Shown here: positions 9,891 to 12,317 of the stretch, piece after piece | Numbering within the stretch: the first letter of the stretch is position 1 | Layout: every line of letters starts with the position of its first letter | IMG/VR virus record: IMGVR_UViG_2690316115_000015 | Location: 1 to 12,317 of that record | Reading direction: 5' to 3' (one strand) | DNA length: 12,317 bases | From: a virus | Taxonomy: Duplodnaviria; Heunggongvirae; Uroviricota; Caudoviricetes | Translations under genes and position numbers: made by a program | The notes under the pieces: generated by a model | What the model was told of the DNA's origin: nothing | The model's database searches: none | The model's input: only the letters and a program-made list of their open reading frames with translations

Positions 9891-10540
9891 TGACGACGAT
9901 TACAGAAATCATCGGACGTGTGAATACACAACTGGTTGACCCGATGATGGTTCGCTGGCCCCTGCAGGAATTGTGCGATTATTACAATGATGCTGTGAGG
10001 GCAGTGATTCTGGCGAGACCGGATGCTGGCGCAAGCCTGGAAACAATCAGTTGTGTTCCTGGCGCCCGTCAGGTTTTGCCCGATGGTGTAATACAACTTC
10101 TTGACGTGATATGCCTCAGTGACGGTAGTGCAGTCAGACCATTATCCCGGGAGGTGCTGGATGCGCAGTATCCTGAGTGGCCCACAATGAAGGGTATTCC
10201 TGAATGTTTTATCAGCAACGACCTGTCCCCGCGCGTATTCTGGCTGTTTCCTGCTCCTGACAAAGAGATAAGTATTGATGCAGTGGTAAGCCGGATACCG
10301 GAGGCAGAGTATGTTCTGACGCAGGACGATGATACGCCAGTTCCACTGGAAGAGGCTTATGTTAACCCACTGGTGGAGTGGATGTTGTTTCGCGCTTTCA
10401 GTAAGGATGCTGCCGGTGGCGCAGAATCGGGGCTGGCTGCGCAGCATTATCAGAGTTTTGTTGAGCAACTTGGGATCAAACAGGGGGCAGACAGTGCATT
10501 GTCTGCCCGTAAAAAAGTGTTTAACGGAGGTGGAGTGTGA
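9890..10540 (+). CDS. Hypothetical protein immediately upstream of the tail fibre (possible tail accessory / adaptor protein)
   Basis: 216 aa ORF coupled at both ends (ATGA at its start; its TGA stop overlaps the GTG start of the fibre). No motif recognised. Confidence 0.45.
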   Translation: MTTITEIIGRVNTQLVDPMMVRWPLQELCDYYNDAVRAVILARPDAGASLETISCVPGARQVLPDGVIQLLDVICLSDGSAVRPLSREVLDAQYPEWPTMKGIPECFISNDLSPRVFWLFPAPDKEISIDAVVSRIPEAEYVLTQDDDTPVPLEEAYVNPLVEWMLFRAFSKDAAGGAESGLAAQHYQSFVEQLGIKQGADSALSARKKVFNGGGV

Positions 10541-12317
10541 GTGTTGTTGTTTCGGGGACGCTGAAATCTCCTGATGGTGAGGCGATATCAGGAGCAAATA
10601 TTACCCTGACGGCGCTGACAGTTTCACCGGATGCGCTCAGCGGCACCAGTGCGTCGGCAGTGACCCGTGAAGGTGGATATTACGGAATGACGATGGATCC
10701 GGGGGAGTATGCGGTTTCGGTGACGGTGAAAGGGAAGACTGCTGTCTACGGACGTGTGCGTATTGAGGGGACCGAAAGTACGGTGACGCTCAATATGCTG
10801 TTACGCCGCAGTCTTGTTGAGGTTAGCATACCCGGAGAACTGCTGACAGATTTCCGGCAGATACAGAATAATGTGGCTGATGACCTTGCCACTATTCGTC
10901 GCCTGAATGAAGACACGGCGACAAAAAACGCTCAGGCCACACAGTCAAAAGAAAGTGCAGCAGCCAGTGCGAAGAGCGCATCTGACAGTGCAAAGACGGC
11001 AACCAGCAGGGCGGCTGAAGCCGGACAAAAAGCGACTGATGCCACTGAGGCTGCGACCCGTGCAGTCACAGCAGCGGGGAATGCAGAGGAAAGCTCGACC
11101 CGTGCCGGAGAGTCTGAAAAAGCCGCCGGAGCTGATGCAGAAAAAGCCAGACAGCATGCTGAAAAGGCCAGGCTGACGCAGGAGAGCGCCGGAGAGATCC
11201 TTAAGCGGGCAGAGGCTGCCACTGTCAGTGCTGAAGAGGCCAGACGTATGGCTGAGAATGCACGGGGGCCCCGGGGGCCTCAGGGAGAAACTGGTCCGAA
11301 GGGGGATGTCGGTCCTAAAGGCGAAACAGGTCCAGTGGGCCCTCAAGGGCCCGCAGGGCCGAAAGGTGAGCGTGGTGACGTTGGTGCTCAGGGGGCTGTA
11401 GGGCCCGCTGGTCCGCGTGGTGAGAAGGGCGAACAGGGGGAGCGAGGACCGCAGGGAATACCAGGCCTGAAGGGGGATACCGGAGAGCGGGGGCCTAAAG
11501 GGGACCAGGGGGATATGGGGCCAAAAGGCGAGAAAGGTGATCCGGGAGGTCCTGCAGGCCCGCAAGGTCCTAAAGGCGAACGAGGAGAAGCCGGACCACA
11601 GGGACCGATGGGAGCACGAGGTGAGCGTGGGGAGACTGGCCCCCGAGGTGAACCTGGTCCTGCAGGTCCGAGAGGCGAACGAGGAGAGACCGGACCTCAG
11701 GGACCTCGTGGAGAGCCAGGCCCGGCAGGCAGCGCTGCAAATGTGGCTGATGCAACGACGGCACAGAAGGGAATTGTGCAGTTAAGCAGCGCAACGGACA
11801 GTGATGATGAAACGAAGGCTGCCACCCCGAAAGCGGTGAAAGCGGCAATGGATGTGGCAAATGAAGCGAAAACAAAGGCAGAAGAGGCTGCAGCAGGAGG
11901 TGGTGTTCCCGGTCCGAAAGGAGATAAAGGGGACACGGGGCCAGCAGGTCCGGCTGGGCCGAAGGGTGATAAGGGAGAGCGCGGTGACACCGGCCCTGTC
12001 GGGGCAACCGGCGAACGGGGACCGGCAGGTGATGCTGGTCCGGCAGGCCCGCAGGGGCCGAAAGGTGACAGGGGAGAGCGGGGAGAGACCGGTCTGACGG
12101 GAAATGCAGGTCCACAGGGTCCAAAGGGAGATACCGGTGCGGCAGGCCCGGCAGGCCCACAGGGACCGAAAGGAGAAACAGGTGCGGCTGGCCCGGTAGG
12201 GGCAACCGGACCTCAGGGGCCGAAGGGCGACCCGGGGGAGACGCAAATACGGTTCCGTATGGGGCCGGGAAACATTATTGAGACAAACAGCAATGGCTGG
12301 TTCCCGGATACAGATGG
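10537..12317 (+). CDS. Side tail fibre protein, lambda Stf-like N-terminal domain with collagen-like repeats (3'-partial, continues past window end)
   Basis: The N-terminus ([26 protein letters not shown]) lines up with lambda Stf (MAVKISGVLKDGTGKPV..) as I recall it. The conserved motif [33 protein letters not shown] matches lambda Stf ([32 protein letters not shown]). There is an Ala/Ser/Thr/Glu-rich helical region and two long Gly-X-Y blocks. Start is a GTG at 10537 with a GGAGGTG SD (10526-10532). No stop before the window end, so the ORF track does not list it. Confidence 0.85.
11266..11730 (+). repeat. Collagen-like Gly-X-Y repeat block 1 within the tail fibre gene (roughly 50 triplets)
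   Basis: Uninterrupted G-X-Y periodicity in the translation ([38 protein letters not shown]...GEPGPAG). The nucleotide sequence is a degenerate 9-bp periodic repeat (GGN CCN NNN). Confidence 0.85.
11911..12237 (+). repeat. Collagen-like Gly-X-Y repeat block 2 within the tail fibre gene (roughly 35 triplets)
   Basis: [61 protein letters not shown]...GPKGDPGE, lying after the conserved GIVQLSSAT motif. Confidence 0.85.

Follow-up and report, generated by a model that had tools for sequence, protein, structure and literature searches.

A probable lateral tail fibre with two collagen blocks in a prophage of the 933W/phi24B type, and the variation of its length and modules

The fibre protein architecture PfN-PCoil-Col-Pf2-Col-PfC was named EPclB by Ghosh et al. 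in 2012 (PMC3368898), and it is found in the tail fibre gene known as Z1483 or L0121 in phage 933W, as ECs1228 or ORF67 in Sp5 and as gp61 or 'tsps' in phi24B. The gene considered here lies on the plus strand at 10537-12317 of a 12,317-nucleotide (nt) stretch of DNA from a tailed phage (IMG/VR record IMGVR_UViG_2690316115_000015, positions 1 to 12,317; the whole stretch is called the window below). It is an orthologue of these genes, represented by codons 1-593 of 645, and shares with them the length of 645 amino acids (aa), the architecture, the interruption in the first collagen domain and the position after the adaptor gene. Its differences from the described EPclB prophages are four substitutions relative to phi24B and, elsewhere in the window, a histidine-phosphatase gene in the place of bor. 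Z1483 and ECs1228 were listed as 645 aa with a PCoil of 109 aa and collagen domains of 157 and 114 aa (PMC3368898), and the collagen lengths and architecture of the window protein are exactly the EPclB figures in Table 2 of that paper. The same authors described a conserved G-X-P-G-G-P-X-G interruption in the first EPclB collagen domain, and collagen lengths that vary by multiples of three residues together with PCoil lengths that vary by multiples of seven (PMC3368898). For the paralogue EPclA, circular dichroism and size-exclusion chromatography with multi-angle laser light scattering were the basis for a trimer whose collagen triple helix melts at 42 °C and which has a trimeric coiled coil, and its PfC domain was found to be a trimerisation and refolding module (PMC3368898).

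In Sp5, deletion of ORF67 (ECs1228) abolished both lysogenisation and plaque formation, and gold-labelled anti-ORF67 marked the tail ends (Mondal 2016, PMC5155283). A 2026 cryo-electron microscopy preprint on phi24B assigned gp61 trimers to six lateral fibres and showed the N-terminal beta-sandwich in contact with the adaptor gp62 through Lys65 and Lys67, followed by a coiled coil from near residue 100, a collagen-like shaft at 243-567 and a small C-terminal domain at 568-644 for which the authors had no confident model (bioRxiv 10.64898/2026.04.10.717836). Both lysines are conserved in the window protein. We propose that the product of the gene is very probably the homotrimeric lateral tail fibre of a short-tailed prophage of the 933W/phi24B type (Sepvirinae), with six trimers arranged round the tail. 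Earlier publications cover the gene itself, including its domain architecture and collagen nature, as well as its essentiality, its location in the virion and its length polymorphism. A preliminary description, made from the DNA letters without database searches, had read the gene as an Stf-like tail fibre with two collagen-like blocks; that interpretation was accurate and largely correct, though the gene was already known.

Identity and integrity of the fibre gene

The reading frame opens past a TAA at 10522-10524, has its earliest in-frame start at the GTG at 10537 and continues without a stop for 593 codons to the end of the window. This GTG (10537-10539) overlaps the TGA (10538-10540) that ends the gene before it (9890-10540). 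A GGAGG at 10526-10530 lies six bases 5' of the GTG, the translation start region as a whole covering 10526-10540 (+). The same start is annotated in the GenBank records of 933W, phi24B and Lyz12581Vzw. The GTG start over the upstream stop and the truncation by the window had both been recognised in the preliminary description. It had further ascribed the absence of the gene from the program-made list of open reading frames (ORFs) to the overlapping GTG as well as to the missing stop codon; the window does lack the stop, and the sole cause of the omission is that the program leaves out ORFs that are still open where the sequence ends.

Compared with 933W L0121 the protein is identical at 589 of 593 residues (99.3%) in a gap-free alignment, and compared with phi24B tsps/gp61, likewise collinear and gap-free, it differs at four of 593 (A132T, T214A, M575L and N586H relative to phi24B); both of these collinear reference genes are described as functional. 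The gene of Lyz12581Vzw, 99.9% identical, is 1,938 nt long and encodes 645 aa, and by comparison with it and with the prophage of Escherichia coli ML35 only 52 codons (157 nt) fall outside the 3' end of the window. The fibre region of ML35 is 100% identical to that of the window, with the 645-aa ORF intact up to its TGA. Over the full length, 75 of 12,317 positions differ from ML35, which means that ML35 carries a related prophage and not the same one. The DNA of the gene matches 329 phage records, almost all of them Shiga toxin (Stx)-converting, with at least 99% identity in 153, and among 5,426 complete genomes of E. coli it finds matches in 863. Since the exact 645-aa cluster was missing from the results of a large protein search, whose best matches covered only the N-terminal 70%, the identity of the gene was taken from the records of phages and E. 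coli. An Rfam scan (at gathering thresholds) and a tRNA scan, both over the full 12,317 nt, found nothing.

The RefSeq annotation of the ML35 copy would imply a different reading, namely that the gene is a prophage remnant undergoing decay. The Prokaryotic Genome Annotation Pipeline (PGAP) divides this copy into a 198-nt 'incomplete' fragment (10537-10734) and a coding sequence from an internal ATG at 11248, leaving 10735-11247 unannotated, and a genuine frameshift allele is known from prophage Stx2a_F451, which has become a pseudogene through the loss of 1 nt at 11448. That the window gene is itself a pseudogene is nevertheless extremely improbable, and we reject this reading, since the frame is open throughout: 593 codons are open in the window, 645 codons lead to the TGA in ML35, where a fibre region 100% identical to this one encodes the whole protein, and its alignment with the functional genes of 933W and phi24B is collinear and free of gaps. 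Because the frame is open throughout, the RefSeq/PGAP split is an annotation artefact, which we offer as a small addition to the published record. Every E. coli genome match that was listed showed both product names, suggesting that the same split occurs there.

Domain architecture, attachment and the question of the ligand

The N-terminal anchor ('collar' or PfN), about aa 1-98 (10537-10830, +), includes Lys65 and Lys67 and matches Pfam CarboxypepD_reg at aa 5-86 with 34.9 bits against a cut-off of 32.3. Modelled with AlphaFold2, aa 1-130 have a mean predicted local distance difference test score (pLDDT) of 68, with 66-86 in the beta-sandwich, strands within aa 3-76 and a helix from aa 103. 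The best compact Foldseek match of this model is the Stf N-terminus in the Ur-lambda structure 9e7m_Ta (E 1.4e-6, template modelling (TM) score 0.82 on the target, root mean square deviation 1.9 Å, 30% identity), followed by fibre anchors from the neck or collar of other phages. In the comparison with lambda Stf (P03764), phmmer aligns the first 77 aa with the Stf N-terminus of 9e7m_Ta (E 8e-4). On this sequence and model evidence, the N-terminus is taken to be homologous to the lambda Stf collar domain, but divergent from it.

The anchor is followed by an alpha-helical coiled-coil rod rich in Ala, Ser, Thr and Glu (PCoil), about aa 102-243 (10840-11265, +); the preliminary description had placed a helical segment at about 10920-11260. 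Collagen block 1 (11266-11736, +; aa 244-400, 157 aa) consists of 32 Gly-X-Y triplets, a GDPGGPAG interruption at aa 334-341 in which one extra Gly breaks the register, and a further 20 triplets. A Phage_fiber_2 (Pf2) non-collagen linker with a short helical stretch (11755-11880, +) separates it from collagen block 2 (11902-12243, +; aa 456-569, 114 aa, 38 triplets). The preliminary placement of the two blocks, at 11266-11730 and 11911-12237 on either side of the GIVQLSSAT motif, was right to within a few codons, and the collagen profile search that it had recommended gave a match to Pfam Collagen (PF01391) with E 2e-43 over the Gly-X-Y runs of 32, 20 and 38 triplets. The linker, which holds the GIVQLSSAT motif, contains a 14-residue segment (11755-11796) and a 10-residue segment (11824-11853); it matches Phage_fiber_2 at aa 407-448 (E 4.6e-18) and corresponds to residues 107-154 of Mu gpS, the motif being common to lambda Stf and Mu gpS. 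The window closes within the Phage_fiber_C (PfC) trimerisation knob (12247-12317, +), of which only the start is included: positions 1-23 of the 64 of the PF06820 profile are matched at aa 571-593 with 30.7 bits, the remainder lying outside. In the Lyz12581Vzw gene the complete domain reaches 117.8 bits, and in ML35 it is intact. These Pfam matches go far past chance.

Structure predictions of collagen monomers are uninformative, and the shaft lengths were estimated from standard rises per residue (about 0.29 nm for collagen), which gives about 16 nm for the coiled coil and about 45 and 33 nm for the two collagen helices. In the assembly that we propose, a beta-sandwich of the lambda Stf collar type would dock on the adaptor ring encoded directly upstream, and a trimeric Ala/Ser-rich coiled coil would lead into a 157-aa collagen helix with one register interruption, the Pf2 linker and a 114-aa collagen helix. 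The PfC knob would trimerise and nucleate collagen folding from the C-terminus, and presumably contacts a cell-surface ligand.

The protein is thus Stf-like in part, as had been suggested from the sequence: the N-terminus and the Pf2 motif bear the likeness out, but the distal half, formed by collagen and PfC, is not Stf-like. Lambda Stf, like the window fibre, has an Ala/Ser-rich trimeric coiled coil after its anchor and then the Phage_fiber_2 motif (...TPKAV). Unlike the window fibre it has no collagen, ends in a gp37-like OmpC-binding distal domain and requires the Tfa chaperone; moreover, lambda Stf sits as four fibres on a dodecameric collar in a long tail, at its gpV/gpM junction, whereas the window fibre would dock on a podovirus adaptor ring. 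EPclA, which forms the side tail fibre in long-tailed lambdoid prophages of enterohaemorrhagic E. coli (EHEC) (for example ECs2717 and VT1-Sakai H0004), likewise has PfN, PCoil, collagen and PfC, but it differs in having a single collagen block, no Pf2 linker, another N-terminal half and a siphovirus tail.

Several points weigh against the assignment to a homotrimeric lateral fibre. The experiments that bear on it were made on related sequences. Recombinant EPclB aggregated in vitro, so that the triple helix has been demonstrated for the paralogue EPclA only (PMC3368898). The N-terminal model is only moderately confident at a pLDDT of 68, and the match to phage_tail_N (PF08400), at 19.3-21.4 bits, remains under the cut-off of 26.6. 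Finally, the ligand is disputed, BamA having been suggested in Smith 2007, as that work is cited, and in Mondal 2016 (PMC5155283).

This last point leads to the reading in which the fibre is the primary receptor-binding protein, its PfC knob binding BamA (YaeT) and thereby setting the host range. The phi24B record calls the gene a 'tail spike protein', the BamA assignment of Smith 2007 is cited by Ghosh 2012 (PMC3368898) and Mondal 2016 (PMC5155283), and the gene is essential in Sp5 (PMC5155283). The authors of the phi24B preprint doubt that gp61 binds BamA and leave the function of the fibre open: in their view a long flexible collagen shaft cannot pass on a triggering signal, the closely related shaft and knob of lambda_2B8 do not recognise BamA, and the central needle with gp54/gp55 is proposed instead (10.64898/2026.04.10.717836). 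AlphaFold-based modelling also favours small downstream proteins over the fibre (PMC12309495), and the module of block 2 and PfC is common, at 91-97% nt identity, to long-tailed phages that use other receptors. Taken with these points, BamA binding by the knob as the determinant of host range seems to us unlikely. The preliminary description had placed a receptor-binding C-terminus beyond 12317. The end of the protein does lie there, but it amounts to 52 aa only, and experiment has established PfC as a module for trimerisation (PMC3368898), any part in receptor binding being putative.

Length alleles and module exchange

The collagen tracts had been described as near-periodic at the DNA level and for this reason as probable hot spots of length change by slipped-strand mispairing or recombination. 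At that level their repetitiveness is only weak. Positions 9 nt apart agree with a frequency of about 0.5, and exact repeats reach no more than 15 nt in block 1 and 11 nt in block 2, the latter length being no greater than codon-order shuffles produce. The single unit that Tandem Repeats Finder reports is 45 nt long and present in 2.1-2.4 copies with 79-84% match, at 12106-12212. Length variation itself is confirmed among relatives. Among 31 cluster representatives whose N-terminal 243 residues are at least 85% identical, block 1 occurs in 18 triplet configurations, in contrast to the identical repeat numbers that would have spoken against the preliminary description. The 31 representatives also carry at least 5 different C-terminal modules, including PfC, Peptidase_S74 and Gp53-like_C. 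In AU6Stx1 a 42-nt in-frame deletion at 11054 removes 14 aa, or two heptads, from the coiled coil.

The best-defined changes fall in block 1 at a recombination hot spot that we designate a-b-a' (11574-11705, +), in which 33-nt repeats a (11574-11606) and a' (11673-11705), identical at 30 of 33 positions, stand on either side of a 66-nt b. Stx2 phage I has an allele longer by 99 nt (678 aa) with the arrangement a-b-a'-b-a', annotated in its record as 'ababa'', and the LC6160xx phages have one shorter by 99 nt (612 aa) with 'a' alone. Both alleles differ from the window by 7-10 mismatches over the aligned fibre gene and both map to the a/a' pair; the tracing of the ±99-nt changes to one pair of 33-nt repeats adds a little to what has been published. 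The junction of the short allele is present in up to 39 of 5,426 E. coli genomes, the perfect matches listed including O121:H19 strains, and that of the long allele in 10 (O157:H7 86-24 and OK1, and O111:H8), a distribution that fits rare inherited events. A sample drawn at even intervals from the 329 matching phage records contained 28 near-full-length rows, defined by 97-100% coverage of the query, and 16 of these had the length of the window.

These alleles could be taken to mean that the collagen tracts are a contingency locus, in which frequent slipped-strand mispairing within a population makes fibre length phase-variable. Alleles of -99, 0 and +99 nt that are separated by only 7-10 mismatches, and the 18 block-1 configurations in close relatives, are what such a locus might produce. 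We regard this as very unlikely, for perfect tandem repeats are absent, with no exact repeat above 15 nt and block 2 at the codon-shuffled level; the window length is the one found in 16 of 28 sampled rows; and the -99 junction clusters in O121:H19 and its +99 counterpart in a few O157:H7 and O111:H8 strains, the polymorphism being seen between strains. Classical slipped-strand mispairing was rejected as the main mechanism since perfect tandem repeats are absent. Of the two routes offered in the preliminary description it is therefore recombination that fits better: length change likely arises from unequal recombination at the imperfect 33-nt repeats rather than from replication slippage, and the shaft would be lengthened or shortened by unequal recombination between such imperfect internal repeats. 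It is plausible that shaft length tunes reach, a change of 33 aa corresponding to about 9 nm. A stronger proposal, which we consider improbable, is that a-b-a' acts as a discrete length switch (612, 645 or 678 aa, each step being worth about 9 nm) that is fast or strongly selected and tunes the adsorption of Stx phages to new hosts. If it were true, selection might be exerted, for example, by O-antigen layers of differing thickness.

Beyond length, the distal half of the gene has the character of a mosaic. Boundaries of database matches fall at window positions 11548 (the collagen interruption; query 1012), 11926 (query 1390) and 11976 (query 1440). From 11926 to the end of the window, that is over block 2 and the start of PfC, EPclA-type genes of long-tailed lambdoid Stx phages (VT1-Sakai, BP-4795, 1717) are 91-97% identical in DNA. 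The module of block 2 and PfC is very probably exchanged with the Stf-like fibres of long-tailed lambdoid prophages resident in the same host. The E. coli genomes with any match contain a median of nine matching places, which means that recombination partners are plentiful. The Pf2 linker is also a joint for module exchange. Among related alleles in the protein database the commonest is P0005 (784 aa, 538 member sequences), which has at aa 404-640 two Pf2 repeats on either side of an insert of about 140 aa; the window Pf2 (11755-11900) agrees with the start of repeat 1 through the 10-residue segment and then with the sequence that trails repeat 2. This pattern suggests that the single Pf2 linker arose by Pf2-by-Pf2 recombination between the repeats of P0005, and the apparent derivation of the single linker from the two repeats of the 784-aa allele is likewise a minor addition to the published record.

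Neighbouring genes and significance

The gene directly 5' of the fibre gene, at 9890-10540 (+), encodes the tail adaptor (SU10_adaptor family), an orthologue of phi24B gp62 from which it differs at 1 of 216 aa. The order of genes in the window is that of the late module of Sepvirinae, as in 933W and phi24B: terminases, P22-like portal, capsid, SU10-type adaptor and fibre. Downstream, the preliminary description had allowed for a fibre-assembly chaperone. The records of relatives contain no Tfa-type (Caudo_TAP) chaperone gene after the fibre; the next gene there is a 270-nt ORF encoding 89 aa with the Phage_fiber_C domain alone.

This PfC-only ORF lies in the +1 frame relative to the fibre gene, a frame already open for about 119 nt 5' of the fibre stop; the region would correspond to positions of about 12356-12745, just past the window end. 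The open +1 stretch contains a conserved GGGTTTTTTTC run (a T7 run) within the final 120 nt of the gene, and the record of AU6Stx1 annotates an 'alternate tail fiber tip' from a predicted +1 frameshift. According to Mondal 2016 a programmed-frameshift signal is absent, and ORF68 (89 aa) is non-essential in Sp5 (PMC5155283). As a possibility, a +1 shift at the T7 run beyond the window could fuse the fibre to the PfC-only ORF68 and so provide an alternative tip.

Two further observations concern other parts of the window. On the minus strand at 151-765, between the lysis genes and the terminase, lies a gene of the histidine-phosphatase family with low GC content (36-41%), which RefSeq names lipopolysaccharide core heptose(II)-phosphate phosphatase. 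Since bor occupies this position in 933W and phi24B, the gene looks, from its sequence and place, like a swapped lysogenic-conversion 'moron'. Minus-strand ORFs at 10945-11565, 11570-12205 and 11782-12246 (154-211 aa) cross the collagen-coding region, and equivalents are annotated as hypothetical proteins in the old record of Stx2 phage I. We did not accept them as genes and take them as by-products of the Gly-X-Y repeat, since the coding repeat leaves the antisense frames free of stops.

Fibres of this type are borne by phages that spread Shiga toxin genes, and both their ligand and their modular evolution therefore bear on the origin of new EHEC strains.

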